Shown here: in pieces, positions 9,072 through 58,869 of the stretch | Layout of the letters: each line of letters starts with the position of its first letter | How positions within the stretch are numbered: position 1 is the first letter of the stretch | Source: Candidatus Zestomicrobium tamdykulense | GTDB taxonomy: Archaea; Thermoproteota; Thermoprotei_A; Sulfolobales; NBVN01 | NCBI GenBank assembly: GCA_039889305.1 | Contig: JAVVFV010000005.1 | Span: 21,358-85,357, forward strand | Length of the DNA stretch: 64,000 bases | Direction of reading: 5' to 3' | Position numbers and translations under genes: made by a program | The notes under the pieces: generated by a model | Seen by the model: only the letters and a program-made list of their open reading frames with translations | Database searches by the model: none | Told to the model about the DNA's origin: nothing

Positions 9072-9173
9072 GCGGGGGTGCCCGAGCCAGGTCAAAGGGG
9101 TCGGGCTCAGGTCCTAAAATGGTGGGAACCCCGATGGCGTAGGCCTGCGTGGGTTCAAATCCCACCCCCCGCA
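9072..9173 (+). tRNA. tRNA-Leu(CAG) with 17-nt intron at 37/38 (intron 9112-9128); no encoded CCA
   Basis: Acceptor GCGGGGG/CCCCCGC. Anticodon stem TCGGG/CCCGA with loop CTCAGG|intron|C. Long variable arm. T arm GTGGG-TTCAAAT-CCCAC. Discriminator A. Confidence 0.85.
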
Positions 9174-10259: not shown

Positions 10260-10590
10260 GCCTTTTTAATGTTCTCCATTTAGTAATCCCCAGCATTCAT
10301 TTTACGAAAGGTTGTTCCCGCAACTTATATTTATGTTTTTTAAGACAATAGGACAAATCCCGTATGATTAGCTAATCAAAAGATAGGTTTAGGAAGAAGA
10401 ATAATGAACTAATTATCTAATTTTGTCGAAGTATATTCTTAGCTCTTGTCTCTGTAAGGTTGTGTCGGGTTCAGAAGCCTGGTCGACATCATTTAGTCAG
10501 GCCTTACAAGGTTCATCATTCGTGATTAGGTTCCTTACATTGCTTATAAAGTATTGAGATTTAGATAGTCTTGTTGACGTAAGACTATAT

Positions 10591-13112: not shown

Positions 13113-13280
13113 TGAGTTAGACCCCGTATAAAACCATATCAGAGAAAATAAGTACTACCGTGTTTAAACACTTCTTATTAATTTATATGGAAATCATGAT
13201 AAAGTCTTGAACTAGTTATATATTGTGTGAGTACTCAATAGTATAGCACAAAATACGAAATAAATGGTGTTTACGAGTAC

Positions 13281-14897
<1,617 letters not shown>

Positions 14898-22161: not shown

Positions 22162-22239
22162 TGGCGGGCCCGCCGGGATTTGAACCCGGGACCTCCGGCT
22201 TAGAAGGCCGGCGCTCTGTCCTAGCTGAGCTACGGGCCC
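22162..22239 (-). tRNA. tRNA-Arg(UCU), CCA encoded
   Basis: The reverse complement reads GGGCCCG-TA-GCTC..GAGC-G-CCGGC-CTTCTAA-GCCGG-AGGTC-CCGGG-TTCAAAT-CCCGG-CGGGCCC-G-CCA. Confidence 0.92.
22223..22239. repeat. attL core: direct repeat AGCTGAGCTACGGGCCC (nt 1-17 of tRNA-Arg)
   Basis: Identical 17-mer at 33883-33899. It extends to 21 bp with one mismatch. Confidence 0.8.
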
Positions 22240-22260
22240 GATTTTTTTACTATCCGAACA

Positions 22261-22270
22261 TTTATATATT
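22261..22270 (-). promoter_or_regulatory. Putative TATA box now serving tRNA-Arg, supplied by the integrated element
   Basis: The minus strand reads AATATATAAA, 22-31 nt upstream of tRNA nt 1 (22239). Confidence 0.4.
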
Positions 22271-22298
22271 TCTTCCTCTCCTGTTTTCTTGATGAGCC

Positions 22299-23299
22299 GT
22301 GGAGAGGTTTAGTTATAGACATGCACTTTCTAAAAGAGCTCTGAGGCTATATGAAGATTACGCAGAAGTTAGGGCTTGGTTTGATGAGCTAAAGGTTTTG
22401 AGAAGTGGGAGAACAGCCCATGACTATTTGGATATGCTTGCGGGTTTTGTTGAAAGTTCTGGAAAATATCCTAAAGATTTAGTTAGGCTATCTTCCAACG
22501 AAGTATATGAAGTTTTGAGGAGATGGGCTTTATCTGAGCTTCGCAAAGGTTCCTACACCACTGGAAGACTTTACGTTTTGTGGAATGCTGTCAAAAACTT
22601 CTTAAAATTTCATGGAATTGAAGTGAAAAATAAACCGCCTTTTAAGAGAACTGTAAAATACCTGGACAAGATCCCAACGAAAGAAGAGTTAAGGCAAATT
22701 TTAAATGCGGCTTCAAGCCTTTCAACAAAAATCGCTATTGAGTTGATGTGTTATGGAGGGTTGAGACCAGAGGATATTTGTGATTTAACCTACGCAAGCA
22801 TAAAAATGATTTTGAAAAAGGAGTAAGTCCATGTGCAGTATTTGTTCCGCAGACAAAAAGCGACAGCGTCTACGTCACTTTCATACCAGAAACAACCGTT
22901 GAGCTTATTCACCAATATTTTAAGTTTAGGGAAAGCAAGAGAGAAAAAATAGTTGCTAAAAGCCCTATAATAGCTAACCCAAGATATCAAGGAAAAGGAA
23001 TTAGGAGAAAAACACTAACAGCAAAGATAGAAAGTGCTATTTCTAAAAGCGGAATTCAATCGCAGTTAACCCTTGGAAATAAGGTTCAGAGAATTAGACC
23101 CTACAGTTTGAGGAAATATTTCAGAAGCAACTTAACGGGACACGCTCCAAGCGAGTACATTGAGGCTTGGCTCGGCCACACCTCCGGATTGGAGCACGTT
23201 TACAGCGGAACAAGAGATTTAGACCCCTCCACAATTGAAAGAATGCGTGAAGTTTACAAAAGGTGCGAACCTTTCCTTTGGCCACAGCCCAACCATTAG
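22299..23299 (+). pseudogene. Tyrosine recombinase/integrase, interrupted by a single -1 frameshift near 22800-22822
   Basis: The N-terminal ORF (22299-22826) ends after the Arg-box YGGLRPEDICDL. The continuation is open in the -1 frame from 22784 and carries LRKYFRS, AWLGH and catalytic ..HVYSG. The shift lies in the A-runs ATAAAAATGATTTTGAAAAAGG. Confidence 0.8.
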
Positions 23300-24474
23300 A
23301 CCAAAATTCTCTAGTTACTGAAGCAAAAATAGAAGCCCTAAAAAGCATAGCAAAAAGCCTACTCGGCATAGATTTGCTGGAAGTTAAAATCGCTAAAGAA
23401 AAGGATGTTGGAAGAGAATTAAGCAAGGATGAAGAATTGGAGCTTTACGAGAAGGAGCTGAAAAAGCTCAGGGAAGGAAAACACAACCCACAAAGAATAG
23501 TGCACGAAAAAGAGCTTGAAAAATACTTGGCGGAAGGATGGCAATTCGTAAGTGTACTGCCCTCACGCAAAATCCTAATTAAAAAGCACAATGAATGGGT
23601 AGAAAATAATAAACTCATTTCTTGGGCTGAAAAGTTGGGCATAAAACTAAATGCAAATGGGAAGCTTGATGAAGGGCAGCTGTTTCAATTGTTTGTTCTT
23701 GCCATTTTATGGAATAACAAACCGACTTATAGAGCTGAGATGGGGGAGAAAATATTCAGGGAGATAAAGAGCGAGTATACCCTTGATAACTTTCAAAGAG
23801 CAGCTCAAGATAACAATATGGAAAATAGGATTAGGGAGATCGCAGCTGAGATCATCCGTAATACGCAAGTCTACAAATTGTTAATGTTCATTGCCAATGA
23901 AACACTTAATGGAAAAAACATTTGGACAATGATCAAAGAAATGCTTGAATTCCCCGTTATTGGCAATGAAGAAGATGATCTGAGAAGGTTAAAAGGACTC
24001 TATAAACTCTTTAACCCTCCATGCCATGATCGCAAAGCATTCCTCACTGTGAAAACCTTCATTATTTTTAGGGAAATTCGAATACAGTTTAGAGAAGTTG
24101 GAAAATATCAGTATCACCCGGTGATTTGTTGTGTTCCTGATAGTAATGTAAGAGAAGCACTAAAAGGTCTCGGTATTCTGGGTGATGTTAAAAATGATTT
24201 AAATAGCATGATAATGGCAAGCCGACTAATGGCGGACGCATTTTGCACAGAAGAATACGAGCTATACGATCTTCCTCTATTCTTTTGGCATAAAGAAGAG
24301 GGCAAATACCCTTCAATTGGATTCAGTAGCACGCAGCCAACGAAAGGCAAATATGCTGGAGTTTGCCCAAAATGCAGGTCACCTCTGGTGTGGCGTAGAG
24401 CTAAACGCACAAACGAAATTTACAGGGGCTGCACTAACTTTCCACATTGCAGATGGAACGATAGAAGCTATTAG
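23263..24474 (+). CDS. Hypothetical protein with C-terminal topoisomerase-type C4 zinc finger; central region weakly HhH-GPD-like
   Basis: C-terminus CPKCRSPLVWRRAKRTNEIYRGCTNFPHCRW matches the zf-C4_Topoisom pattern. The central LFQLFVLAILWNNKPTY...CVPDSNVREALKGLGILG is reminiscent of EndoIII-like glycosylases. The start overlaps the integrase 3' end, so the true start is uncertain. Confidence 0.55.
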   Translation: MRTFPLATAQPLDQNSLVTEAKIEALKSIAKSLLGIDLLEVKIAKEKDVGRELSKDEELELYEKELKKLREGKHNPQRIVHEKELEKYLAEGWQFVSVLPSRKILIKKHNEWVENNKLISWAEKLGIKLNANGKLDEGQLFQLFVLAILWNNKPTYRAEMGEKIFREIKSEYTLDNFQRAAQDNNMENRIREIAAEIIRNTQVYKLLMFIANETLNGKNIWTMIKEMLEFPVIGNEEDDLRRLKGLYKLFNPPCHDRKAFLTVKTFIIFREIRIQFREVGKYQYHPVICCVPDSNVREALKGLGILGDVKNDLNSMIMASRLMADAFCTEEYELYDLPLFFWHKEEGKYPSIGFSSTQPTKGKYAGVCPKCRSPLVWRRAKRTNEIYRGCTNFPHCRWNDRSY

Positions 24475-24532
24475 AACGATCTACCTGCAAGTTCATGCTT
24501 CTGTTAGGAGACATAAAAAGAAAATGGATTTT

Positions 24533-25036
24533 CTATACACTTTGCTTGGTCTCCTTTAAAGCTTCGCTGATTTGGCGATGGAAGAAAATAAAGATGATAA
24601 TTGTTGCAGAAGCTGTGTAGCTCGCAACGAGCAGCATGTTCATCATGTTAAATGCACTTAGGACGATATAAGATGCTCCTGCAATGATGGCTGCTCCAAG
24701 GATGGAGTAGATGCTTGCGGTCTTCCAGGCTCCCCATTTACGTGCAAGCTTTAGCCAACTCTTCCATTTCAGAAAGTCTTTTAACCTCAATGGCTCTGAA
24801 AAATCAGTCTCTTCAACCGCCTTGGCCAGTTGCTCATCCATCTCTCGCTTTTGAACAGCCATAACCCTCGGTAACATAGCAATACATGCCATACCTCCCA
24901 CAACGAGAAGAATAAAGGCTAAGAGGGCTTGGCCGAGAAGGGCCAAAGCAAAAACAGAGAGCATAAGAAAACCCACAATAGCCCCTACGTAATGGATCTT
25001 ATCCCGTTTTCGATGAGCCTGCCTAATGGAAAGCAC
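24533..25036 (-). CDS. Four-TM membrane protein, unknown function
   Basis: Two hydrophobic hairpins separated by a charged loop (QKREMDEQLAKAVEETDF). GTG start. Confidence 0.55.
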   Translation of the reverse strand: MLSIRQAHRKRDKIHYVGAIVGFLMLSVFALALLGQALLAFILLVVGGMACIAMLPRVMAVQKREMDEQLAKAVEETDFSEPLRLKDFLKWKSWLKLARKWGAWKTASIYSILGAAIIAGASYIVLSAFNMMNMLLVASYTASATIIIFIFFHRQISEALKETKQSV

Positions 25037-25241
25037 TACTGCAAAGACGCATAGAACAGCCAGAAAGAGAAAGGCGGATCCATTGAATATACGCCATGTT
25101 CTTTACTTCATCTTATCTAACTATTATTGTTTTTATTAGCATTTATGGCTTAGTTTTTGGTATCTTTTTGCAGAACAACATATCCGTTACGGGCAGAGTC
25201 CAGCTAATGCGCAGCTACGTAGCAACCAGGTTCTAGGTCTA

Positions 25242-25640
25242 TCAAGAATGGCGAGTGCGCTTCTCCAGTTTGTCTCCAAGGTAGGCTCCTAGTAAGTAAC
25301 AGGGTAACGCCAAGAATGCTGAGCTATCTGCACTTAAACCGAACACATGCCTTAGGGCAATCACGGAGATCCCCCATAAAAAGAAGCCAATCCAGAAAAT
25401 GCCGCCGAGGATGAAGATAACTCGACGGGTAATCTGCCATCTTCGGGGAGAGGTCCAAACGAAACGTCGGAGAGCGTAAGTTGAACCTACGAGCAACAAC
25501 GCGATGGCTGAGAATTTGACAGCTGTTTGGAGAGGAACATGGCCAGTCATATACCCCACCCACGAAATTATGACACAGAAAGTTAGAGCGATTAGACTGT
25601 AGAACAGAATTCGAGCTTTCCAGTAATTAGGCTTTCCCAT
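25242..25640 (-). CDS. Four-TM membrane protein, unknown function
   Basis: 132 aa with four hydrophobic segments. It lies directly downstream of the Cys-rich paralog. Confidence 0.55.
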   Translation of the reverse strand: MGKPNYWKARILFYSLIALTFCVIISWVGYMTGHVPLQTAVKFSAIALLLVGSTYALRRFVWTSPRRWQITRRVIFILGGIFWIGFFLWGISVIALRHVFGLSADSSAFLALPCYLLGAYLGDKLEKRTRHS

Positions 25641-25752
25641 CTTACCCTCACCTATTGTTTAAGTAAAAAAATAAAAAGGTTATGTGCATGGTTCAGACAT
25701 AGCAACTTAAGCCCACCCTCTCAGAGGTTGCAGTAGCATGTCTAAAAGGTCG

Positions 25753-26526
25753 TTACCCGCCACAACTGAGATAGCACACTATGTCACAAAAGTACCCCCA
25801 ATAGTCCCATCCGTAAGTTAACAGGTATAAACAAGCTACCAATAAACCACCGTAAGTTACAACGCCGCCAGCAAGGCATGCCGCTACTATCAACCCATAA
25901 GCACCCCAACAAGCGATATGACAGAAAAGATTACACCAGAAGTCGTCCATCAAGACTGCGGAGCTTTTGAGGATTTCTCTATCATATTCTTGTAGTTGTT
26001 TTCCTACCAGCCTAGACAGATATTTGGCTTCTTTCTCCATAGTGTAGTAGCCTTCTGCAAGTTGCATCAGCGTTTCGTCTCCGCTCTTCTCGTAGACCTT
26101 ACCTACCTCTTTGGCGACTTTGCCTAAGACGGCGTATAGTTGCGATAAAGTAACGGAAGAATTAAACTCGACAAACTCTAGTGATACGAGTTCAGATTTG
26201 CCTGCTGGCGCATAATTCATTACTGTGAAAGAGTGATTGTAGAATTCTGAGTTTTGTGGCGTAAGCGTTGTTAATAGGGTTAGGTTATATTCACGTTGCA
26301 CTATGTAGCTTAGGCTGTAGAATTGTATGGACGTTTTTTCTGCGGCGATTTCTGTGCAAACGAAGCTGGCTGTTCTGTTAATTTCATCTGTAAGTTCGTT
26401 ATAACTCCAAAGTAAAGTTTGGGTGACTGTCACTTCGTAGGCATCATCATCTACTTCATACGTTATCAGCGTTACTGTTTTGTTTTCGTTCTGTTCTATT
26501 GTTGTGGCTGTGATATTTGATGGCAT
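25753..26526 (-). CDS. Paralog of the sequon-rich domain of 26731-28137, with an 8-Cys hydrophobic C-terminal tail
   Basis: It aligns by eye to aa 200-385 of the larger protein (TVTLITYEVDD..YEVTVTQTLLW, QFYSLSYIV, FNSSVTLSQLY..LGKVAKE). The tail is FWCNLFCHIACWG...FCDIVCYLSCGG. Confidence 0.7.
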   Translation of the reverse strand: MPSNITATTIEQNENKTVTLITYEVDDDAYEVTVTQTLLWSYNELTDEINRTASFVCTEIAAEKTSIQFYSLSYIVQREYNLTLLTTLTPQNSEFYNHSFTVMNYAPAGKSELVSLEFVEFNSSVTLSQLYAVLGKVAKEVGKVYEKSGDETLMQLAEGYYTMEKEAKYLSRLVGKQLQEYDREILKSSAVLMDDFWCNLFCHIACWGAYGLIVAACLAGGVVTYGGLLVACLYLLTYGWDYWGYFCDIVCYLSCGG

Positions 26527-26561
26527 GTTAATGTTTGGGTATACCCAAAGATGTAACTCTA

Positions 26562-26723
26562 TTAAGTTTGTGTCGTTCTCTCTCGTATCAGCATAATTAT
26601 GCCAACAATAGCCATAAGTGCAAACAGAACTAGACCTAATGTTCTTTGGAATATTAGGTTTATCAACGCTCCAGAAATACCGAGGACAACCATAGACAAA
26701 GCAAGCCCTTTTGACTTCTGCAT
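26562..26723 (-). CDS. Small two-TM membrane protein (53 aa; the track ORF extends to 26786)
   Basis: MQKSKGLALSMVVLGISGALINLIF..LGLVLFALMAIVGIIMLI. The internal ATG avoids a 56-nt overlap with the upstream gene. Confidence 0.45.
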   Translation of the reverse strand: MQKSKGLALSMVVLGISGALINLIFQRTLGLVLFALMAIVGIIMLIRERTTQT

Positions 26724-26730
26724 CTGTTGC

Positions 26731-28137
26731 TTACCCCATTGGGCAGTCAATCCAACCCATAAATTCAGCGCACATGCAACAGGCATAGACGTGAGAAGCG
26801 AGACTTATTATACACGCCGAACAAGGTATTGTTATACAACCAATGCACCACCAGATAGTAAATATGGTTGCGCATGCAACAGCACACGCAGCACATGTAG
26901 CGCATAAAGGCACGGATAGATATGTTGTAAGTATCAAGCCTACGCAGAAGAAACAATCCCATATGTTGCCGCCATCTGCCAATAGTACAGAGCACTGGAT
27001 AATTTTTTTGTCATATACTTCGAGTTTTTCTTTTACTATTTTGGACAAGTGCTTAGTTTCGTCTCCTATGATGTAGTAATTTTGTGCAAATTGTCTAAGT
27101 GTTTTATCTTCGCTTTTTCCATAGGCTTTCCCCAACTCCTTGGCAACTTTACCCAACGCGAAATAGAGCTGTGATAAAGTAACTGAAGAATTAAATTCAG
27201 CAAACTCTAATGATATTAATTCAGACTTGTGTGCAGGTACATAGTCAATGATTGTGAATGAACTATTGAATGTTATAGAATTTAATTGCGTGAGCGTTGT
27301 GTGTATGGTTAAGTTGTATTCCTCATGATGAACAATGTAGCTTAGGCTGTAGAATTGTAGGGATATGTCTTCCGCCGCTATCTCTGTTGAGATGAACTTA
27401 GCTGTTCTGTTGGTTTTAGTGCTTGCCTCGTTATAATTCCACAGCAAAGTTTGGGTGACGAGCACCTCATAAGTTGTATCATTGGCTTCGTATGTTACAA
27501 GCGTTACCGTGCGTACTTCATCCTGCTCAAGCGTTGTAACCGCAATGTTTAAGGGTGTATTAGTGCTCGGAAGTTCTTGGTCTTGAGAACAGGATTGACA
27601 AACACAAGATGAGCCACTGGTTTGATATAGAAGTATAGGCTCTATGTTCGCCGATATATGTTTGCCAACAACGTTCACCGTAACATAGTGATAAGTGGTG
27701 TATATTGGGTAGCCTGCTTTTATCCATGCGGTTATTCCGCCGAGCATGTTGTAGACTTTTGTGAAGCCGTTGCTGGCGAGGATTTGGCATGCAATTTGGC
27801 TTCTTGAACCAGCCTTACAGTAAACTATTATTGGATCGTTTATATGCTCTTGCAGTTCGCTTATTCTATCTTCAAGCTCGTAAACTGGTACAAGAACAGC
27901 GTCATATAAATGCCCGAGATTGTATTCGCTCTGGTTTCTAACATCCAAAACAAGGCTTACTGTGCCTTTCTTTATCATTTTGTAAGCTGCATCAACGCTT
28001 ACGTCCTCATAAGCTCCAGCCCAAGACGCTTCAGCAAAAGCCTCAGGCACTGCAACAAAAGCAAGCAACAACACAGCCACAAGACCAACAGCAATCAACC
28101 TCTGACCACGCATCTCCAAAACAGAATAGGCCTTCAC
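26731..28137 (-). CDS. Secreted rhodanese-domain protein fused to a sequon-rich domain and a 15-Cys hydrophobic C-terminal tail
   Basis: Signal peptide RLIAVGLVAVLLLAFVAVPEAFA. Rhodanese region LVLDVRNQSEY..IIVYCKAGSRS..GGITAW. Many N-x-S/T sequons. The tail is CATCAACAVACATIFTIWWCIGCITIPCSACII..ACCMCAEFMGWIDCPMG. Confidence 0.75.
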   Translation of the reverse strand: MKAYSVLEMRGQRLIAVGLVAVLLLAFVAVPEAFAEASWAGAYEDVSVDAAYKMIKKGTVSLVLDVRNQSEYNLGHLYDAVLVPVYELEDRISELQEHINDPIIVYCKAGSRSQIACQILASNGFTKVYNMLGGITAWIKAGYPIYTTYHYVTVNVVGKHISANIEPILLYQTSGSSCVCQSCSQDQELPSTNTPLNIAVTTLEQDEVRTVTLVTYEANDTTYEVLVTQTLLWNYNEASTKTNRTAKFISTEIAAEDISLQFYSLSYIVHHEEYNLTIHTTLTQLNSITFNSSFTIIDYVPAHKSELISLEFAEFNSSVTLSQLYFALGKVAKELGKAYGKSEDKTLRQFAQNYYIIGDETKHLSKIVKEKLEVYDKKIIQCSVLLADGGNIWDCFFCVGLILTTYLSVPLCATCAACAVACATIFTIWWCIGCITIPCSACIISLASHVYACCMCAEFMGWIDCPMG

Positions 28138-28319
28138 CTATATACCTCCCTTAAATTCTGTTTTTTAGTATATAAAACTTTTGCAACTAATAATAAAACT
28201 CAATCCCAAGGCGAAACTTGCAACGTTAAAAATTTGCAATACCGCCTGTTCTGTTAGTAACGTTTAACCGAGAGGTTTAAATATTGCTGTCTTTCTGTTT
28301 TTCTGTTTGGGGGTGTGTT

Positions 28320-28760
28320 ATGGGAACTATAAGAAGTGAATATTCTATCGAGCAGTTTGAGGCTGCCCTGCAACGTTTTGCGCATCAGATTACTGACATG
28401 ATGCAGAGGATAGACAAGATGCACGTTAGTTCAGAAAAGATGGATGTCGACTTAGAATTCAGCTACGGCGTTAAAGGCGAGGTAATGAAGATATACGTGT
28501 CTTTTTACAAGAGGGATAAGCCGGACTCATGGGGAGAGTCGCTATCCTTCACAGTAGAGCCTAAAGACTACGTTGACAGCCCCCACATAACAAAAATCCA
28601 CTATGAAGGGGCAAACGACAAGCAGTACAGCGAGAAAATCCTAACATGGCTTAAAAGCCTCCTAGGCTCAGAAAAGCCTGCAGTATCCTTCTCGTTGAAG
28701 GATTTTTCAAAGAAGGTCAACAGGCGCCTTACAGACTACAAAGCTTTTTCGAAGGGTTAA
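28320..28760 (+). CDS. Hypothetical protein
   Basis: The ORF has protein-like composition and is first of three tightly spaced plus-strand genes. I prefer the start at ATG 28320. Confidence 0.5.
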   Translation: MGTIRSEYSIEQFEAALQRFAHQITDMMQRIDKMHVSSEKMDVDLEFSYGVKGEVMKIYVSFYKRDKPDSWGESLSFTVEPKDYVDSPHITKIHYEGANDKQYSEKILTWLKSLLGSEKPAVSFSLKDFSKKVNRRLTDYKAFSKG

Positions 28761-28762
28761 TC

Positions 28763-29173
28763 ATGGAATCCCTCGTAAGAATGTTTAGGGAATCCCTCTT
28801 CAAAGCATTTTATGATTGGCTTGAGAAGAATAAGACCGTTATAGGCGAGAAATGGTATGTTTATGCCTTCAACGAGGCTAAGAGGGCTGAGGATTTAGCC
28901 GACAACGCAGTAGGCATAATCGGCGCAGCCATGTGGATGTTCAACACGATGGCCAACTGCGGCGTAATGGCAGGTGTAGGCCCAAACGGATACAGCCTAC
29001 AATATCTGGAAAACACGAAAATCGACGAAGCCTCAACAAGAAGGCTCCTAACAATGATTGTGGCTTGCCTAAACCTTCAATACCTGCCCATTGAAGAGGC
29101 CAAAAAGCAAATCCCAATAATTAGCCGTGGCAAGTTTTCTCTGAAGCTTTTTGTTGAGGATAGGAAATCATAA
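28763..29173 (+). CDS. Hypothetical protein
   Basis: The ORF starts 2 nt after the previous stop. I recognise no motif. Confidence 0.5.
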   Translation: MESLVRMFRESLFKAFYDWLEKNKTVIGEKWYVYAFNEAKRAEDLADNAVGIIGAAMWMFNTMANCGVMAGVGPNGYSLQYLENTKIDEASTRRLLTMIVACLNLQYLPIEEAKKQIPIISRGKFSLKLFVEDRKS

Positions 29174-29208
29174 ATACCAGCTTGTGACATTGGGTTTATG
29201 GTGTTGGT

Positions 29209-29397
29209 ATGCCTAAGGGACCTGAATGGCTGACGGTTAGGCTGACTCCTGAGCTGATGGAGAAAATGAACTCTTATCTTCTGGCTGTGGCAAACAGAAT
29301 GGGACGCATACCCCAAGGGTTAAAAACCAGGATAGTGCATGAAGCCCTCGAGGAATGGTTCAAAAACCACGGCAGTGACCTCGAAAGGTTCACATAA
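29209..29397 (+). CDS. Ribbon-helix-helix (CopG/Arc-like) DNA-binding protein
   Basis: LTVRLTPELMEKMNSYL..., a beta-strand followed by two helices in 62 aa. Confidence 0.6.
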   Translation: MPKGPEWLTVRLTPELMEKMNSYLLAVANRMGRIPQGLKTRIVHEALEEWFKNHGSDLERFT

Positions 29398-29444
29398 CTT
29401 TTTCTATTTGGGGTGAAGCCCGTTGCCTAACAAACTCGGCTCAA

Positions 29445-29660
29445 TTATACTTTCCGCCTGTATAGCTCGCATTTCTCCGCAAAGTAGGGTGGAAGCTGGT
29501 CTGGCAGGACAGCGTTTCTGGGACACTTGTAACGTTTAACTATTTGCCCAGTGCTTGAGTCACCGCCCACCGTTTGTTCGAGAAGGCTGCAGCTCCAGCA
29601 TCGCGTCTTCTCTATTGGAACTTTAACTATGGTTTTAACCCTTCCCATGCAACCCCTCAA
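29445..29660 (-). CDS. Small Cys-containing (zinc-binding?) protein
   Basis: CWSC ... KCPRN ... KCELY spacing. It is the last gene of the minus-strand RadA/ParB operon. Confidence 0.4.
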   Translation of the reverse strand: MRGCMGRVKTIVKVPIEKTRCWSCSLLEQTVGGDSSTGQIVKRYKCPRNAVLPDQLPPYFAEKCELYRRKV

Positions 29661-29670
29661 CTTTTACATA

Positions 29671-29829
29671 TTAGGGGTGTGAAACCCGCTTCAGCCCTTC
29701 CTTAATTATTCTGTTGTATTTCTCGATGAGGGCTGAGTAGGCCTCCAAGTCCAAAGCCATCCGCTCAAGCTTCTCAGTGAGGGCCAAAAGCCTCCCATTA
29801 ACGTCCATGGTGTTGGCCCTTTTCAGCAT
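29671..29829 (-). CDS. Small helical ORF (52 aa), below the track cutoff
   Basis: My own translation is MLKRANTMDVNGRLLALTEKLERMALDLEAYSALIEKYNRIIKEGLKRVSHP. It fills the gap between the ParB-like gene and the Zn protein. Confidence 0.3.
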   Translation of the reverse strand: MLKRANTMDVNGRLLALTEKLERMALDLEAYSALIEKYNRIIKEGLKRVSHP

Positions 29830-29945
29830 TTAGGTGTTTTTCAACAGTTTCTACTGTGAGTTTTCCCCTTTCTGTGCGCCAAACTCCAGTTTTGTCTTCC
29901 ATGCCGAAAACGTCGGTTCTAGCGATGAAAATTTGGAAAAGCCTG

Positions 29946-31016
29946 TCAGCCAATGACTGGCTCTTCAAAACCTTTTTCTCCGGCCATTTTTATGGCTTTC
30001 TGGGCTACTTCCTCCCTCTCTTTTTCAGTTAGTTTTTCCCAGAAGACAACGAAGATTGATGCTTTAATGACGTCTTTCAAGTATTTGCCTTTGTATCTTG
30101 TGTATATGTAGTCGATTAGAATCATCGGGTAATGTTCTTTCAACTCCATGACTTTTTTGAAAGGCTCTTCAGGTGGCGCTGTTGCTTTCTCGGCTTCTTC
30201 TACAAGCAGAGGCTTTGGAAGATCAACAATTTTTTCAGCTAACTCTGGTTTTTGAGCCATCGCCTCAATAACCTTTCGAGCTTCTTTTGGCTTGAGTTTT
30301 TCACGTTTAACAACTTTAACGACTTTAACTGTTTTTTCTGGAGGTAAACCTTTCTCGATGGCTGCTTTGGCGAGTTGAGCCTCCCTTGTGGTTAGCTCTT
30401 CCTTCACAATAACCTCAGCTAATGCTTTCTGTTTTTCAGGCTCTATAACTGAGCCGATGATCTCGTAATGGAGGGGTGACAGCGCTGTCATCCCTGCTAA
30501 TAGCGTTTTTGCTTCCGGCGAAACCCTAACCCTACAAAGTATGCGTTCAACTTCTCTGTGGCTTATTCCAAACTTTTCAGCCATCTGGTCTATTCTCATC
30601 TTTTTAACTTCATGCAGATGGCGGAAGTATGCTGCCTCGCGAAGCGGGTCAACCGTTCCCCTCGCCTTGTTCTTCTTATAGTTTATTTCCAGCGCTTCTT
30701 CAGGTGTGCAGTCGGTTATTATGGCTCTTATCTGAGTCCAGCCGAGCTCCCTTGCGGCTCGCCAGCGTGAGTGCCCATCTACTATTTGGTATTTGGCTTG
30801 GCTCCACGGCTGCTTAGCCTTTATTTGGGCTATTTCTTCGGGTGTCAGCCTCCTTAGGAGGATTGGGTCTATCCTGTATAGACCTCTTGACTCCAGCCTT
30901 GTCATGTCTGTGCGCAGCATCATGTCCTCTTCTCTGCCTATGGCTGTGATGTTGCCTGGCAGTGGGATTATCTGCTCGAGGGGTATGTGCTCTATGCGCT
31001 GTTCACTCTGGGACAT
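29946..31016 (-). CDS. ParB/Srx-like N-terminal domain protein with HTH
   Basis: YQIVDGHSRWRAARELGWTQIRAII (ParB box) followed by HTH RIDQMAEKFGISHREVERIL. It overlaps the radA-like stop by 14 nt. Confidence 0.8.
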   Translation of the reverse strand: MSQSEQRIEHIPLEQIIPLPGNITAIGREEDMMLRTDMTRLESRGLYRIDPILLRRLTPEEIAQIKAKQPWSQAKYQIVDGHSRWRAARELGWTQIRAIITDCTPEEALEINYKKNKARGTVDPLREAAYFRHLHEVKKMRIDQMAEKFGISHREVERILCRVRVSPEAKTLLAGMTALSPLHYEIIGSVIEPEKQKALAEVIVKEELTTREAQLAKAAIEKGLPPEKTVKVVKVVKREKLKPKEARKVIEAMAQKPELAEKIVDLPKPLLVEEAEKATAPPEEPFKKVMELKEHYPMILIDYIYTRYKGKYLKDVIKASIFVVFWEKLTEKEREEVAQKAIKMAGEKGFEEPVIG

Positions 31017-31959
31017 CCTCTACACCAGCCTTTGTTATCATGAATTCCGTTGCGGCTCGTGGGAGGTAGCTGCTGGCTATGAGTGTTGCAACTCTCCTTG
31101 TTCCGGGTCCTATGGTTAGGTAGACGCGGTTTCCAATCATGTGGCTTACAACGTGTCCTCCAACAGGCGGGTTTAGAACCTCCGGCCTAACGTCATAGAC
31201 GTATCCAACGGGCGAGGCTAGAACCTGCTCGGTGGTTATGACTGCTATTCTGTAAACGCGTGCGTAGTTGAGGAGAAGCCTCAAACACCTGTTTATCAGC
31301 TGTTGTCGGGGGGCTAGAAGCTCCCTTCCAGGATATTCGGCTCTGAAGGGCGATACGAGGCTGTCAACGATGATTAGGCGGATGTTCCTTTCCCTTATGG
31401 GCTTGTGGGCGTTTTCAAGCAGGAATATCAAGTGCTCGCTGCTGTAGACTTTTGCATAATTCACCAGGGGGCATGTTTCTTCAGGGTTTAGGCCTCGAGC
31501 CTCAGCCATTTCATAGAGGCGTTTTGAGGAGAAGCTTCCCTCAGTGTCAAAGTATAATACGTTTCCGCCTAATCCGCCCTGCTCTGGCTTAAGCTGGGCT
31601 GTAACGCAGAGCATTAGGCAAAGCTGGGTTTTTCCAGAACCATACTGCCCCACAAGCTCTGTTATGGCCTGGGTTTCTATGCCTCCGCCTAAAAGATTGT
31701 CAAGGGCCTTGCTTCCAGTTGTGCACCTCAGCCTTCTTTTTGTCATTTCCCAGTGTTCGTAGGCTGTTATGAAACTGCAGCCTAAAGCCTGCCTTGCAGC
31801 CTCCACTATCCGTTGGGCAGCCTCAAGCTTTTCATAACCAGCCTTCTCCTTAACCTCCCTAGCTGGGGTGACAGCCAAAGTTTCAACGTTTGCAAAGCCG
31901 GCGTCCCTAAGCCTTTTGGCTATGGATTTGCCCACGCCAGGAATCTGCTCTAACTCCAT
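31003..31959 (-). CDS. radA: Full-length RadA-like recombinase (HhH N-domain + RecA core)
   Basis: LEQIPGVGKSIAKRLRDAGF (HhH), TTGSKALDNLLGGGIETQAITELVGQYGSGKTQL (Walker A), LIIVDS (Walker B), PVGGHVV. The ATG at 31959 lies 2 nt after the upstream stop. Confidence 0.85.
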   Translation of the reverse strand: MELEQIPGVGKSIAKRLRDAGFANVETLAVTPAREVKEKAGYEKLEAAQRIVEAARQALGCSFITAYEHWEMTKRRLRCTTGSKALDNLLGGGIETQAITELVGQYGSGKTQLCLMLCVTAQLKPEQGGLGGNVLYFDTEGSFSSKRLYEMAEARGLNPEETCPLVNYAKVYSSEHLIFLLENAHKPIRERNIRLIIVDSLVSPFRAEYPGRELLAPRQQLINRCLRLLLNYARVYRIAVITTEQVLASPVGYVYDVRPEVLNPPVGGHVVSHMIGNRVYLTIGPGTRRVATLIASSYLPRAATEFMITKAGVEDVPE

Positions 31960-31961
31960 CT

Positions 31962-32135
31962 CTAACCCTCCTTTGAGTGCGTGTGTTGGCCCCATTCAAT
32001 GTTGGTTTCTGCTATTTTGCTCCAGCAACGCCTGCAAATCGGAAGCCTATCACCCTTATAGACTATGAACACTTCTATGTCGGTGTTTCTGCATTTACCA
32101 TTCCATGGATTCCTACAACGCTCAATCCTAGACAT
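31962..32135 (-). CDS. Small Cys-rich zinc-finger-like protein (57 aa)
   Basis: MSRIERCRNPWNGKCRN...LPICRRCW. Only the C-terminal part of the 145-aa track ORF looks protein-like. Confidence 0.4.
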   Translation of the reverse strand: MSRIERCRNPWNGKCRNTDIEVFIVYKGDRLPICRRCWSKIAETNIEWGQHTHSKEG

Positions 32136-32382
32136 GTGTTCCACATCTCCTTGCTGTTTTCCAGCCGTTACCATGCAAACCAGCTTTGGCAAACTCTCTA
32201 ACAATTTCAATCTGATGATTTTGTAGAAACTCCTCAAGAGCTTCTTTCTGGCTTTGCCAATCATACTCATGGCTTGTAAATTTGCCCCAATAATGCGGAT
32301 GCCTATGCAGAAGCTGCAGGAGTAGTTTACGCTGGAGAACCGATAAGCCCTCAAGCTCCAAGCCCAAAGCTTCGGAGAGCAT
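32128..32382 (-). CDS. Small helical protein (84 aa), first gene of the RadA/ParB operon
   Basis: Protein-like composition (LSVLQRKLLLQLLHRHPHYWGKF..). Its stop overlaps the next start by 8 nt. Confidence 0.45.
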   Translation of the reverse strand: MLSEALGLELEGLSVLQRKLLLQLLHRHPHYWGKFTSHEYDWQSQKEALEEFLQNHQIEIVREFAKAGLHGNGWKTARRCGTHV

Positions 32383-32539
32383 AGGCGCTCAGCCTCCAAC
32401 CCAAAATTAGCGGTTTATGAAAGACGCTATAAAAAGGCAACGGCGAATCGACCTTTTTGAACAGTGGAGAGAGATAAGTTAAAGTGAAGTTTTGCACCTT
32501 ATTAATGCTGTATATTTAACCCTAAGGAGAAGCCGGAAA

Positions 32540-33205
32540 TTGAGTACACTTAAAAGGCAGGAAAGGAAAGCTGTGGTGACAGGAATCTCTGCAGCTGATG
32601 CAATAGACAGATATAGATATCGCCTTTCAAAGGAGTTGGGCTCAACAAAAGTTGAAGATAAAGGGCAATATGTACTTATGCATGAAAGGGTTCGTCTTCA
32701 AAACAAAGACTTTATGGACATTGTAGTTTATACAACAGACCGCATATACATATCTGCTTCTCCTTATGTGTCTGTGGAAAAATTTAACGAAGTAGCCACC
32801 AAAATTGTTCGTATAGCACAGGAAAGCGTGAAAATATTGGAGGAACTTCGTCCTATAACATTGTCAAGGGCTAAGAACATTTTGGAGTTCACTCTAAGAT
32901 TGAATGTTGAAGATGAATTTCAAAGAATGGTGGTAGTTATATTGGCTGACACAATAAATGAAATAGTTCTTAGGGAGGAAATGAAGGCAGCGGGGATTGA
33001 AGGGCCTCCTTTAGACGAGGGCATCCCTGAGAAAATAAAAAGGCTTAAAGATAAAGGAAAATTCATTCCTGAAGAAGAAGGAGTGAAAAATATTAGGGAG
33101 TTAAGAAATGGCATAGTCCACCGCGGAGACATCCCTGATAAAACTGAAGCTGCTAAGGCTCTAGAAATCACAAAAGCCGTGCTTAAGTGGTGCTTGAAAG
33201 AATGA
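32540..33205 (+). CDS. Protein with C-terminal HEPN-like Rx4H motif
   Basis: IRELRNGIVHRG sits in a helical C-terminal region. I prefer the TTG at 32540, preceded by AGGAG and a TATATTTAA box, but the track start at 32492 is possible. Confidence 0.55.
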   Translation: MSTLKRQERKAVVTGISAADAIDRYRYRLSKELGSTKVEDKGQYVLMHERVRLQNKDFMDIVVYTTDRIYISASPYVSVEKFNEVATKIVRIAQESVKILEELRPITLSRAKNILEFTLRLNVEDEFQRMVVVILADTINEIVLREEMKAAGIEGPPLDEGIPEKIKRLKDKGKFIPEEEGVKNIRELRNGIVHRGDIPDKTEAAKALEITKAVLKWCLKE

Positions 33206-33849
33206 CTGTGGAAAAAGTAAGCAAATATGAGGTAATAGTTGGTTCAGACGAGGCTGGAAAGGGCGAATGGCTAGGTCCATTGACGGTCGCAGCAGTAGCA
33301 CTTACGCCAGAGCAGAGCTCATATTTGGTTACACAAGGTGTGATGGATAGTAAGGAATTAAAAATTGATAGAATCATGGAGTTGTCTGGCATAATCAGGA
33401 AGGAATGTTTAAGCTATCATGTCATTGCCATAACCCCGAGAAAGTTTAACATGCTATTGAGGGAAGTGAAGAAGGAGGGAAAAAGTTTAAATGATATATT
33501 GGCTTGGGGACATGCTAAAGCAATATATGAAGTTTACCGGGAGCTGCAAAACAAGAAAATTTTGGGGAGAGTAAAGCTGGTGATTGATGAGTTTGACAAA
33601 TTAAAAACTGAGGAACGCTTAGGCAGGGTTCTTAAGTTAGCAAATTTTGACATAGAACAAAGACCACACGCAGAGGAGGAAACAGCAGTTGCAGCTGCAA
33701 GTATACTTGCTCGTGCAACAAGAGAATTTTGGATTGACGATGCTTCCAAGCGTTTACATTTAGATTTAAGAAAGCTTTCGGCGTCTGAAGCGTTAACCCT
33801 TAGGGATGCGGAATATTTTGCCAAAATAAGTTTTCTACATCCTATATGA
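33202..33849 (+). CDS. Type 2 RNase H-like protein, closest by eye to the RNase HIII catalytic domain (no N-terminal TBP-like domain)
   Basis: GSDEAGKGEWLGPLTVAAV, MDSKELK, ITPRKFN..LNDILAWGHAKAI, LVIDEFD, HAEEETAVAAASILARATREF. There is an ATGA start/stop overlap with the upstream gene. Confidence 0.7.
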   Translation: MTVEKVSKYEVIVGSDEAGKGEWLGPLTVAAVALTPEQSSYLVTQGVMDSKELKIDRIMELSGIIRKECLSYHVIAITPRKFNMLLREVKKEGKSLNDILAWGHAKAIYEVYRELQNKKILGRVKLVIDEFDKLKTEERLGRVLKLANFDIEQRPHAEEETAVAAASILARATREFWIDDASKRLHLDLRKLSASEALTLRDAEYFAKISFLHPI

Positions 33850-33882
33850 ATACCTATGTTCGAATAGGATTTTTCCTATCCA

Positions 33883-33899
33883 AGCTGAGCTACGGGCCC
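33883..33899. repeat. attR core: second copy of AGCTGAGCTACGGGCCC (orphan 5' fragment of tRNA-Arg)
   Basis: Identical to 22223-22239. Confidence 0.8.
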
Positions 33900-33921
33900 C
33901 TACATGTGATATGCTTAGCAG

Positions 33922-33928
33922 TTATAAA
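33922..33928 (-). promoter_or_regulatory. Putative original tRNA-Arg TATA box, stranded outside attR
   Basis: The minus strand reads TTTATAA, 23-29 nt upstream of the orphan tRNA 5' fragment. Confidence 0.4.
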
Positions 33929-33986
33929 TGCTTTTCTATGCGATAATTCATTACTGCGTTAGCTGATCATTAACAACGCGAATTCT

Positions 33987-34259
33987 CTAGTAAACATCTA
34001 TACGTGCATTCCTCAACTCAAAATACTTCACCAGAACACCAACCTCGTTCTCACCTAAGAACCTACTAAGCACTATCTTAATCACTAAACCATCACCATA
34101 AATTCCTGGACTACCCTCAAAGAAATACACTAAATCACTACCCTTCCTATGAATCAAATCATTAATATCCTTAATTACCCTCTCAGCAACCCACTGAGTA
34201 GGAATCCCAGCGATCACGATCTCCCCCTTCCCCCTAAAAATCTGTACTGACATCCTCAT
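33987..34259 (-). CDS. Hypothetical protein (90 aa)
   Basis: The ORF has normal composition. I recognise no motif. Confidence 0.45.
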   Translation of the reverse strand: MRMSVQIFRGKGEIVIAGIPTQWVAERVIKDINDLIHRKGSDLVYFFEGSPGIYGDGLVIKIVLSRFLGENEVGVLVKYFELRNARIDVY

Positions 34260-34307
34260 TAACTATCAACCACTCACTAAACAAATCCAAAATTAATAAA
34301 AGAAACA

Positions 34308-34363
34308 CAGACCCCCCCACCCCTCTGTTTCCACTGGAAAACTAACTAATATAAAGAAATAAA
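34308..34363. repeat. Left arm of the 56-bp perfect inverted repeat (ORB-like, G-string distal to spacer)
   Basis: CAGACCCCCCCACCCCTCTGTTTCCACTGGAAAACTAACTAATATAAAGAAATAAA. Confidence 0.9.
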
Positions 34364-34494
34364 ACTTAATTTCTAAAATTCTATATAAATAGAAAATGAT
34401 ACAAAATTAACATTAAATTTAAGCTCTCATTTATGCATATTTATAGAAAGTTTTGTATAATGATCTATATATAGAGATTATAATTTTAGCAAAA

Positions 34495-34550
34495 TTTATT
34501 TCTTTATATTAGTTAGTTTTCCAGTGGAAACAGAGGGGTGGGGGGGTCTG
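34495..34550. repeat. Right arm of the 56-bp perfect inverted repeat
   Basis: Exact reverse complement of 34308-34363, checked base by base. Confidence 0.9.
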
Positions 34551-34554
34551 GTTG

Positions 34555-34830
34555 TTATGGTGGTTGTGGGTTTAAGTATTTTTGTTTGAATGCTTTTTCT
34601 AGGTCTATTGAGAGTAGGTTGGCTAGTGATGCTAACCATGCTAGGACGTCTGCTATTTCGTCTTCTTGTGCTTTTTTGTTTTTGTTTAGTATTGATTCTG
34701 CTAGTTCACCTATTTCTTCTATGAGCCACGTGAATGTTGCGTATACCCCTCTTTCACGATCTCTCTGTAGGTAGTACTTACTCATTAATTCCTGTACTTC
34801 TCTTAAGGTTATTTCTTGGTGCATTTTCAT
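34555..34830 (-). CDS. Small MazG-like nucleotide pyrophosphohydrolase
   Basis: FTWLIEEIGELAESI...EDEIADVLAWLASLANLLSIDLEKAF, the typical MazG four-helix motif, in 91 aa. Confidence 0.75.
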   Translation of the reverse strand: MKMHQEITLREVQELMSKYYLQRDRERGVYATFTWLIEEIGELAESILNKNKKAQEDEIADVLAWLASLANLLSIDLEKAFKQKYLNPQPP

Positions 34831-34882
34831 TCACTTTCATGAGTTTTTTGCTTAAAGGTTTATTATTTAGTTTAGTATTCTT

Positions 34883-35074
34883 ATGTTGGTGTTGGTGGTG
34901 TCGAGTAAGAAAAAGAAGAAGACTTCAATAATGTCTGGTGCTGGGTTGGTCAGGTTCTTTGAGGAGGTTGAGGCTAAAGTGAATATTTCTCCTTACCAGT
35001 TAATCTTTATTGCTATATTCTTTGCTGTAGCTGTTTTAGTGCTTGGTTACTTAGCACCAGTCCTGGTTCCTTAA
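34883..35074 (+). CDS. secG: Preprotein translocase subunit Sec61-beta (archaeal SecG)
   Basis: Basic N-terminus, SGAGLVRFFEE motif and a single C-terminal TM. The true start is probably one of the downstream GTG/ATG codons. Confidence 0.72.
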   Translation: MLVLVVSSKKKKKTSIMSGAGLVRFFEEVEAKVNISPYQLIFIAIFFAVAVLVLGYLAPVLVP

Positions 35075-35214
35075 GAGCTTACGGATTCGATGTTTAGTTG
35101 TTTTAGAGTGGGAAAAAGTGGGATGGAAAGGAAACAGTGGGGTTACGCAAGACTGCCTCACCAGAAATACTATAAAACTTCTCGCCTATATTATTATGAA
35201 CTACGTGATGATGA

Positions 35215-35970
35215 ATGAGTAATACCTTCGAAGAAGTCTCAAGTCTTGGTAAGAGGGTTTCCTACGGCAGAGTCAGTATAGGGAGTAATTATCTGGAATT
35301 CGAGAATATCAAGATAATACTGCAAGAACATAGTGGCTTGCTTAAGTACTTACGTGAGGGGAAATCTCGCACAGAGAAATACGTAGCGTACTCGCCGGAC
35401 ACACACCTACTAATAAACCCTGTAGAACCGACCAACCTTCCCAAACCCTTAACCGACTTTATCTTGCTAGAGTTTACTGAACCAATTATCATAGCACCAT
35501 CATCAACAGTAATAATGTACTCGACATTCCCTATCGAGATAGGGGTTTTCGTAGTCAATAAAAAGAACGCAGAACTCTTAGATGTCTTTAGCTTAGTTAA
35601 TCAGAAGTACACACTGTATGGAACACCGAGAAGTGGTGTTGTGTGTAGGTACTGGCGAACCAGAATCTCCACAGAATTACCTGAAGTAGATTTGTTGAGG
35701 GAAGGGATCATGAAGCTCAAGATATCTAATAATTCTGAGTATTGGGTAACCGTAAGTAACCTAGTCCTAAACGTGAATAACATGACCATATACTACGACG
35801 ATAAGCACGTCTCAACATCAGCTCAAGCACTCATCTACTCACAAACGTTTGCTGAGACTTTCTTCGTGGATGAACCCTTAAGAGAAAGGATGAGTAAGTC
35901 CTTAACTACGAGAGCACAAAAACGCTTACCCGTAATTAAGGAGAAGTTTGTTATGGAGTGGGGGCTCTGA
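35215..35970 (+). CDS. Conserved hypothetical protein
   Basis: A 251-aa ORF with normal composition. I cannot assign a family confidently. Confidence 0.55.
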   Translation: MSNTFEEVSSLGKRVSYGRVSIGSNYLEFENIKIILQEHSGLLKYLREGKSRTEKYVAYSPDTHLLINPVEPTNLPKPLTDFILLEFTEPIIIAPSSTVIMYSTFPIEIGVFVVNKKNAELLDVFSLVNQKYTLYGTPRSGVVCRYWRTRISTELPEVDLLREGIMKLKISNNSEYWVTVSNLVLNVNNMTIYYDDKHVSTSAQALIYSQTFAETFFVDEPLRERMSKSLTTRAQKRLPVIKEKFVMEWGL

Positions 35971-36806
35971 TGAGCTTCATAGACACTATTATTTACGGGG
36001 AAGTAACCCTACGCAGTATCTTGGTATTCTTAATCTTAATGTCTGTTACTGTCGTTATAGCTAAGTTAATTACGTTAACTCTTAAGAGAGTACTCATAGA
36101 TAAGTTAAAGAAGAACTTACTTGACGTGATCTTGAAGATCGTCTACTACACCATAATAATTGCTGTCTTCATAGGCTTAACACCACTACTAGGTATCAAC
36201 TTATCTGGACTTCTCTTAGCAGGAGGTATTACCGGAATAATAATAGGGTTTGCCCTCCAGAACATAGTAGCTAATCTAGTCTCAGGTATTTTCCTAGCTA
36301 TAGAGAGACCCGTGAGAATAGGTGACGGCATCTCAGTAGGTAGTGTAGTAGGAGTGGTTGAAGACATGAATATCTTCTCCATCATAATAAGAACCTACGA
36401 CGGATTCTTCGTCAGAGTACCTAACTCAACAGTCTTCACATCAAACATAACTAACTATACTGCACACGTTGCTAGGAGGTTTGAGTACGTCGTAGGCATA
36501 AGCTACAGTGATGACGCACAGAAAGCAATAGAAGTAATCAAGAAAGTAATTGAGGAGCACCCACTAGCACTCAAGAAACCAGAACCACAAGTCTTCGTTG
36601 ATAACTTAGGCGAGAGCTCAGTCAACATAGTGATTCGTGTGTGGGCCCCATCACAAGAATGGTACTCAGTAAAAATGGACTTACTATGGGAAATAAAAAG
36701 AAAGCTTGAGGAAAACGGCATAAGCATACCGTTCCCGCAAAGAGTAATCTGGTTCGCTAATAACTTACGACTAAAGAACCAAGACACTAATGAGACTCTT
36801 AAGTAG
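35958..36806 (+). CDS. Small-conductance mechanosensitive channel (MscS family)
   Basis: Three N-terminal TMs, then GFALQNIVANLVSGIFLAIERPVRIGD..V.G.VEDM....T.IRT.DG, the core MscS signature. Confidence 0.85.
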   Translation: MGALMSFIDTIIYGEVTLRSILVFLILMSVTVVIAKLITLTLKRVLIDKLKKNLLDVILKIVYYTIIIAVFIGLTPLLGINLSGLLLAGGITGIIIGFALQNIVANLVSGIFLAIERPVRIGDGISVGSVVGVVEDMNIFSIIIRTYDGFFVRVPNSTVFTSNITNYTAHVARRFEYVVGISYSDDAQKAIEVIKKVIEEHPLALKKPEPQVFVDNLGESSVNIVIRVWAPSQEWYSVKMDLLWEIKRKLEENGISIPFPQRVIWFANNLRLKNQDTNETLK

Positions 36807-37138
36807 TGGGTGAGTACTTGATATACCAGACTACCAGAGAAAAAATAATGAAGTTATTAATTAATACAGAAACACCCTTAACTGCTGAGGAAATAATAAG
36901 TGTGTTAGGTCTTAAAGCAACTCCTAAGGAGGTATACGAGCACTTGGAACACATAGCAAAAAGTGTTAGGAGAATCTACAATAATACGCGTATCTTAGTT
37001 ATGGTACCACCTGCATGCAGGTCTTGCGGTTACGTGTTTAAAGACCTTGAGAAACCTAAAAAACCTAGTAAGTGTCCGAAATGCGGGTCTGAGAAAATAA
37101 AACCACCAGCATTCAAGATAGTGAGGATTCAGGATTAA
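36806..37138 (+). CDS. HTH domain fused to C-terminal zinc ribbon (COG3357-like regulator)
   Basis: wHTH-like N-terminus, with CRSCG...CPKCG at the C-terminus. Confidence 0.65.
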   Translation: MGEYLIYQTTREKIMKLLINTETPLTAEEIISVLGLKATPKEVYEHLEHIAKSVRRIYNNTRILVMVPPACRSCGYVFKDLEKPKKPSKCPKCGSEKIKPPAFKIVRIQD

Positions 37139-37263
37139 ACAAGATCTCAAGAAACTAATTAAGCTGCAGTAAGAAATATAACTCTGAAGTTAGGTATCGT
37201 GAAATACTTCAAGTATCTATTTATGAGGGTCTTCACGTAGTTTTCTATGGGGTTGAGTATTAA

Positions 37264-58806: not shown

Positions 58807-58869
58807 CAGAAATAATGATGCCACAAACAAATAAAAATTAGAATTAAGCATTAAAGGTTAGGTGATGGG

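Follow-up and report, generated by a model that had tools for sequence, protein, structure and literature searches.

The oriC1 of Aeropyrum pernix carries four origin recognition boxes (ORBs), arranged in two pairs. For Sulfolobus (Saccharolobus) islandicus, it was reported in 2025 that oriC1 requires two such boxes, ORB2 and ORB3, together with an 11-bp element, the ucm, that lies in the unwinding element (PMC12141716). The ucm is bound by UBP, a small and abundant protein that also binds the N-terminal domain of MCM, and when the ucm is mutated MCM is trapped at the origin; in Sulfolobus the element is needed for firing and not for MCM recruitment (PMC12141716). The motif reads ATTATACAAAAG in S. 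islandicus and ATTATACAAACT in S. acidocaldarius, and it has also been reported in the origins of A. pernix (PMC12141716). A review describes A. pernix oriC1 as being recognized by ORC1/Cdc6-1 and states that neither cdc6 gene of this species adjoins its predicted origins (PMC5333045). Sulfolobus oriC3, according to a review, has neither an ORB nor a mini-ORB (PMC4010727).

In the 64-kb stretch of DNA analyzed here (the window), a repeat finder identifies a perfect inverted repeat whose two 56-nt arms, at 34308-34363 and 34495-34550, are 100% complementary and lie 131 nt apart, giving a unit of 243 bp when both arms and the spacer are counted. Read from its outer edge, the left arm consists of 4 nt, an ORB, and an AT-rich flank of 24 nt, and the right arm is the other half of the repeat. 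Each arm holds the same 28-nt box, TTCCAGTGGAAACAGAGGGGTGGGGGGG: ORB-L (34312-34339, minus strand) has its G-string outward, toward a gene encoding a 90-aa protein, and the identical but inverted ORB-R (34519-34546, plus strand) has its G-string outward, toward a MazG-domain gene. Both boxes carry the hallmarks of a full ORB, namely the TCCA-N-TGGA dyad, GGAAAC, and the G-string, and no other site in the 64 kb matches a 25-nt form of the box when three mismatches are tolerated (0 expected in 100 shuffles). A looser search with a 13-nt mini-box found no further clustered sites or extra mini-ORBs in the window. The spacer between the arms (34364-34494) has a G+C content of 16.8%, compared with ~42% for the window, and is presumed to be the duplex-unwinding element and MCM loading zone. 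Counted from the TCCA dyad, perfect arm identity extends 25 nt inward and 31 nt outward, and a single long hairpin is predicted for the 243-bp unit as single-stranded DNA (-79.1 kcal/mol, z = -17.8 relative to shuffles). A preliminary description of this DNA had reported that the arms are exact reverse complements, that each carries the ORB hallmarks with its G-string outward, and that the arm identity continues about 25 bp past the ORB, all of which is borne out; it had also called the spacer almost pure A+T, which is correct as to its AT-richness and slightly overstated as to its purity. An oriC3- or WhiP-type origin is ruled against by the full ORBs in the window.

The distribution of the box was assessed by scanning one genome per species from 185,579 bacterial and archaeal species with the pattern TTCCAGTGGAAACNNNGGGGT, which matched at least 120 stretches. 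Among the 120 matches listed, 116 carry an archaeal label and are spread over nearly every archaeal phylum, and four carry a bacterial label, two of these four with an orc1 gene. The two are a Dormiibacterota bin (L024) and an Omnitrophota bin (L054; loci are given by number where they must be told apart), in which a full ORB is accompanied by an Orc1/Cdc6 gene with E values of about 1e-111 and 1e-117, respectively; both are almost certainly archaeal contigs that were misassigned in binning. An Orc1/Cdc6 gene lies within 8 kb of the box in roughly one-third of the matches listed (~40 of 120). Many of the other archaeal ORB loci share the layout seen here, with an inverted partner 139-223 nt away, G-strings pointing outward, and a spacer of 19-30% G+C. 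The oriC1 of Metallosphaera javensis is among the matches, and comprises orc1-1, two boxes on one side, a core with TTGTATAA, and one inverted box. Since nearly all of the listed matches are archaeal and many have the same layout, the box at 34308-34550 is, by its sequence, the pan-archaeal origin recognition box, in a canonical arrangement. Published accounts of Sulfolobus oriC1 (PMC12141716) and reviews (PMC4010727, PMC5333045) are in line with this.

The spacer also contains matches to the ucm, the sequence of which was taken from the supplementary oligonucleotides of PMC12141716, where the exact 11-mer, ATTATACAAAA, served as the UBP-binding probe. The sole exact copy in the 64 kb is found in the core (34451-34461, minus strand), and 45 nt from it is a mirror copy with one mismatch, ATGATACAAAA (34396-34406, plus strand); when up to one mismatch is allowed the window yields four matches, two of which are these. 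The two copies are the cores of two conserved inner blocks. Inner block 1, TCTATATAAATAGAAAATGATACAAAA (34380-34406, plus strand), comprises a TATA-like element and the one-mismatch ucm copy, and inner block 2 (34451-34477, minus strand; TTTTGTATAATGATCTATATATAGAGA on the plus strand) is its mirror. The conserved TATA-like element (TCTATATA-AGAGAT) is fused to each ucm copy, and both copies are kept in orthologous loci.

These orthologous loci come from the organism's nearest named relatives, which are Zestosphaera species, and from metagenomes. The MazG-domain protein of the window itself has a 100% identical counterpart in a metagenome-assembled genome at NCBI. In relatives with 92%, 88%, and 75% MazG identity (L121-L132), an inverted ORB pair is located directly downstream of MazG, and in Zestosphaera tikiterensis (62% MazG identity) the pair occupies a 1.25-kb gap after MazG-Sec61beta, where a third ORB is also present. 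The 25-nt box core matched 20 stretches in metagenomes, of which seven are the MazG-origin locus; six of the seven contain the ORB pair, and the remaining copy (L157) stops just beyond one ORB. The element keeps its position in the genome throughout a clade of genus to family level, in which its AT-rich core and ORB spacing are maintained, with a dyad-to-dyad distance of 181 nt in the window versus about 201 nt in the closest relatives. No ORB was found within 8 kb of MazG in Desulfurococcaceae AG1 or in Thermosphaera, so the linkage of MazG to the origin is restricted to the Zestosphaera clade. The Thermosphaera MazG locus (L137) includes 3.8 kb without a called gene (9738-13550), with no ORB inside it. 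In two other organisms (L143 and L147) a distant MazG homolog of 41% identity lies ~1.5 kb from an inverted ORB pair, a pairing that could be coincidence or could reflect a deeper linkage. The origin also coincides with a synteny breakpoint when the window (33900-37200) is compared with L121-L133: the side carrying MazG, Sec61beta, DUF432, and MscS is stable, and the gene content of the other side varies among relatives, with the 90-aa gene accompanied by a TnpB/Cas12f-like gene and a gene for a 551-aa protein in some, TIM-FBPase-reverse gyrase in others, and an operon for pyruvate:ferredoxin oxidoreductase in others again.

When seven non-redundant orthologs are aligned and mean pairwise identity is calculated for each region, conservation is confined to four blocks. 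The two ORBs score 0.94 and 0.90 and the two mirrored 27-nt inner blocks 0.88 and 0.85, whereas the inner flanks, the centre, and the outer flanks score 0.44-0.55. This is a selective footprint on predicted binding sites, unlike the pattern of a mobile repeat: the architecture and the position are conserved, and the sequences under selective constraint are precisely the ORBs and the ucm blocks.

The preliminary description had singled out as unusual that the arms remain identical past the ORB. This extension is real, but it is not a property of this family of origins: the orthologs have only 4-36 nt of perfect inverted identity, none of it inward of the dyad, so the extension is private to the lineage of the window. 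The perfect 56-nt arms are probably the result of a recent, lineage-specific conversion of one arm by the other, with no functional requirement for them, and we infer gene conversion, or template switching in the palindrome, as the homogenizing process. Some assemblers use a k-mer size of 55, and the arm length of 56 is one more than this. An assembly artifact was considered as the source of the perfect arms and rejected, as both flanks run into different, syntenic sequence and, by reasoning, a de Bruijn graph would be unable to homogenize arms with only ~31 nt in common.

The genes on either side of the repeat are those given in the preliminary description, a 90-aa orphan and a MazG-like gene. 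The former (33987-34259, minus strand) starts 49 nt from the left arm, is restricted to the clade, and is next to the origin only in the closer relatives; the latter (34555-34830, minus strand) encodes a MazG-domain nucleotide pyrophosphohydrolase, and its stop codon is 5 nt from the right arm. We think of MazG as a conserved syntenic anchor of the origin in this clade and not as part of its mechanism. Homologs of the 90-aa protein form 11 clusters among 5.8 billion proteins, all of them in the clade, and its predicted model is a confident, small alpha/beta structure (pLDDT 82.8). The protein was considered as a candidate ucm-binding protein and rejected as not UBP-like: it has no Pfam match, no sequence match in a copy of the PDB newer than the UBP paper, and no fold neighbor at E<0.001, and its sole tie to the origin is its position.

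There is no Orc1/Cdc6 homolog in the 64-kb window at E<=1 in a tblastn search with Metallosphaera Orc1-1, a query that detected orc1 in ~40 of the 120 other ORB loci listed. The claim in the preliminary description that the window lacks this gene is thus upheld; the missing adjacent orc1/cdc6 is less remarkable than that description held, since the A. pernix precedent (PMC5333045) means that an adjacent orc1 is not a defining feature of an origin. In the Zestosphaera-clade loci, tblastn returned only weak, non-Orc1 matches (E about 0.01-0.02 in L154 and L157, and E = 0.2 in the more distant L135/L136). The match in L154 (8141-9247, minus strand; also L157, ~3056-3298) is a 368-aa P-loop ATPase, resembling by eye the archaeal ATPase/DUF234 type. 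In some relatives its gene and the origin are ~5.7 kb apart; the window does not have it. The ATPase matched with an E value of about 0.01, is not recognizably an Orc1, and was rejected as a candidate for one.

A trace of an older gene order can be seen in tiaS, which encodes tRNA-Ile2 agmatidine synthetase. At a distance of a few kb or less from ORBs, tiaS is found in Metallosphaera, a contig of the Methanomethylophilaceae, several loci from metagenomes, and two species of Zestosphaera. Loci with this gene include L002, L023, L027, L130-L133, L139, L142, L144, L149, L151, and L156; L023 and L151 have orc1 as well, the order in L151 being orc1, ORB, tiaS. The 64-kb window has no tiaS. The presence of tiaS near ORBs in distantly related archaea suggests an ancient orc1-oriC1-tiaS neighborhood, from which orc1 was later separated in the clade and tiaS too in the lineage of the window.

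Taken together, the identity of the boxes, their architecture, the orthology of the locus, the footprint, the ucm, the chromosomal context, and the remnant of ancestral synteny indicate that 34308-34550 is very probably a chromosomal origin of replication of the oriC1 type, in an uncultured member of the Desulfurococcaceae that resembles Zestosphaera. The chromosomal context includes genes for reverse gyrase, FBPase (FBP aldolase/phosphatase), TIM, Sec61beta, PriS, and PCNA. The features of the oriC1 type that are present are at least two full ORBs, their inversion around an AT-rich element with G-strings outward, a ucm in the core, and an orthologous position; the one that is absent is orc1/cdc6 in cis, which is typical and not universal. 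Points that count against this reading are that there are only two ORBs, that orc1/cdc6 is not in cis, and, weakly, that the cumulative GC skew has no inflection at 34.4 kb, in a profile that covers 64 kb only and in which skew follows gene orientation. The proposal of the preliminary description, that two inverted ORBs around an unwinding core form a replication origin, gains support from the comparative evidence of conserved position, footprint, and ucm match. The genes for PriS, the small primase subunit, and a PCNA homolog stand side by side at 57054-58851 (minus strand), ~22.5-24 kb from the origin.

By homology with the oriC1 of Sulfolobus and Aeropyrum, a mechanism can be proposed in which protein binding, helicase loading, and firing would all take place at 34308-34550. 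One monomer of Orc1-1, encoded elsewhere in the genome, would bind each inverted ORB with fixed polarity, and the two ATP-bound monomers would then recruit the MCM helicase to the ~180 bp of AT-rich DNA between the boxes. A UBP ortholog would occupy the two mirrored ATTATACAAAA motifs in the core and help MCM to exit the origin, after which replication would proceed in both directions.

A locus with these binding sites might instead bind Orc1 without firing, as a dormant or relic origin or as a regulatory or chromosome-organizing ORB pair, with the chromosome replicated from other origins. The unlinked initiator gene and the missing skew signal are compatible with this, dormant origins are documented in haloarchaea (PMC4595724), and a second Pyrococcus ORB cluster, inside a gene, does bind Cdc6 (PMC1904270). 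However, the ucm blocks, which in Sulfolobus serve firing and not MCM recruitment, are as strongly conserved as the ORBs, and binding alone would hardly explain an AT-rich core and an ORB spacing that are kept throughout the clade. We therefore consider a bound but silent site improbable.

The origin could also have belonged to a captured plasmid or virus that integrated alongside, and not to the chromosome itself. An insertion of ~11.7 kb (22223-33899) does lie beside it; this is absent from three relatives (L127, L150, and L154), in which the TIM gene is joined directly to the 90-aa gene, and its limits are two direct copies of a 17-nt sequence, AGCTGAGCTACGGGCCC, one forming the 5' end of a tRNA-Arg(TCT) gene (22223-22239) and the other being attR (33883-33899). 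The insertion encodes a partial tyrosine integrase (22299-22826), a ParB-like protein (29946-31016), and a RadA/Rad51 paralog (31003-31995) in a region where the local G+C is raised to 0.51, along with a Zn-ribbon Top1-like protein, a Cys-rich rhodanese, membrane proteins, and an RNase HII-like protein, and it is probably an integrated mobile element. Its end is ~410 bp from the left arm of the origin, and the capture of such elements is an accepted source of multiple archaeal origins (PMC4010727, PMC5333045). Yet the origin starts at 34308, outside the att boundaries, relatives without the insertion keep both the origin and its linkage to MazG, the integrated element has no orc1, and a 24-mer from the ORB has no match in 2.9 million viral contigs, which together leave a captured origin highly improbable.

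There is a similarly slight chance that the repeat is a transposable element of the MITE or foldback type, with terminal inverted repeats that resemble ORBs by accident. The small size of the unit (243 bp), its perfect 56-nt inverted ends, its AT-rich interior, and an adjoining integration hot spot would all suit such an element, and the preliminary description had named many identical copies of the 243-bp unit as the finding that would identify one. No such copies appear in the 64 kb, in the metagenome records, or in the viral contigs. The unit is single-copy in the window; a 33-mer specific to the arms has 0 matches in 241 million metagenome records; among the 20 metagenome matches to the 25-nt ORB core no contig has a second inverted pair, and seven matches come from the MazG-origin locus; and the 0 matches of the ORB 24-mer in viral contigs apply here too. 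There is also no target-site duplication, as the flanks (...AAGAAACA / GTTGTTAT..., that is, ...GAAACA / GTTGTT...) contain no direct repeat, and the orthologs hold their position with imperfect arms (4-36 nt perfect) and a footprint restricted to the motifs. A transcription terminator or insulator palindrome between MazG, which reads toward the repeat, and the 90-aa gene would fit the closeness of the MazG stop codon to the right arm and the very stable single-strand hairpin, but is extremely unlikely, given that a terminator scan (stem <=20 pairs, loop 3-8) found no such site, that a 56-nt arm with a 131-nt loop is outside the model of that scan, and that relatives keep the motifs and not the complementarity of the arms. 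The repeat has no Rfam match to a non-coding RNA, and tRNAs are the only such RNAs found in the window. One of these, a third tRNA of 102 nt (9072-9173, plus strand), is detected with Rfam and not called by ARAGORN, and probably carries an intron.

If 34308-34550 is read as an oriC1-type origin, its symmetry may have a further meaning, which we put forward tentatively and regard as rather doubtful. The oriC1 of this clade could be fully symmetric, each half being an ORB followed by ~56 nt of free sequence and a 27-nt TATA-like/ucm block, with arms that are actively homogenized by intramolecular conversion, here over 56 nt. Were this symmetry functional, one UBP, and possibly TBP or another factor, could act in each half-origin to gate the release of each MCM hexamer. 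Such an origin would be a natural counterpart, with the ucm on both sides, of the one-sided arrangement in Sulfolobus and a clean substrate for testing the model of UBP and MCM egress, and it would be an origin that works wholly in trans from its initiator gene.

The more general consequence is that the probable primary (oriC1-type) origin of an uncultured Zestosphaera lineage can be placed. The lineage would be a second one in the Desulfurococcales with its origin and orc1 unlinked, and the ucm element would be extended to another member of this order, in a mirrored two-copy form. The locus could serve as a coordinate anchor for the genome, for growth rates estimated from metagenome coverage (peak-to-trough ratio), and for planning assays of Orc1 and UBP binding. 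The finding leaves the current view of how archaea initiate replication unchanged.

Among known origins, the oriC1 of S. islandicus resembles the locus in having two inverted full ORBs with outward G-strings around an AT-rich core (ORB3-DUE-ORB2; recognized by Orc1-1 and UBP; PMC12141716, PMC3607249), and the cores of both carry ATTATACAAA(A) in the same orientation to the nearest ORB. Sulfolobus oriC1 differs in being immediately adjacent to orc1-1 and in having a third ORB (ORB1), neither of which is found in the window; the count is therefore two ORBs here versus three in Sulfolobus oriC1, and three also in Z. tikiterensis. The spacing differs as well: the S. islandicus oligonucleotides have a core of ~105 nt with one exact ucm, ~31 nt away from ORB3 (PMC12141716), whereas the window has two mirrored ucm copies, each ~56-57 nt from its ORB and fused to a TATA-like block, in a dyad-to-dyad core of ~181 nt. 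Metallosphaera oriC1 has the layout of the window, but it adjoins orc1-1 and its spacer is shorter (90-131 nt) and less AT-rich. The oriC of Pyrococcus likewise has two long ORBs as an inverted repeat together with AT-rich regions; it is located directly upstream of cdc6/orc1 and is accompanied by many 13-bp mini-ORBs and by a second ORB cluster in dp1 (PMC1904270), all of which the window lacks. In Haloarcula hispanica oriC1 each of the inverted ORBs likewise carries an extended G-string on its outer side, but that origin is cdc6-linked, lies in a GC-rich genome, and has a G-rich enhancer repeat inside its ORBs (PMC4010727), whereas the window has neither the enhancer repeat nor the cdc6 linkage. 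A. pernix oriC1, as described in the accounts of Grainge 2006 and Robinson & Bell 2007 given in PMC5333045 and PMC12141716, is like the window in coming from the Desulfurococcales, in being of the ORB type, in its unlinked cdc6, and in the occurrence of the ucm in its origins. What distinguishes the locus at 34308-34550 from these systems is a set of modest variations on a known origin type: mirrored double ucm blocks, an initiator that is unlinked as in Aeropyrum, and freshly homogenized 56-nt arms.
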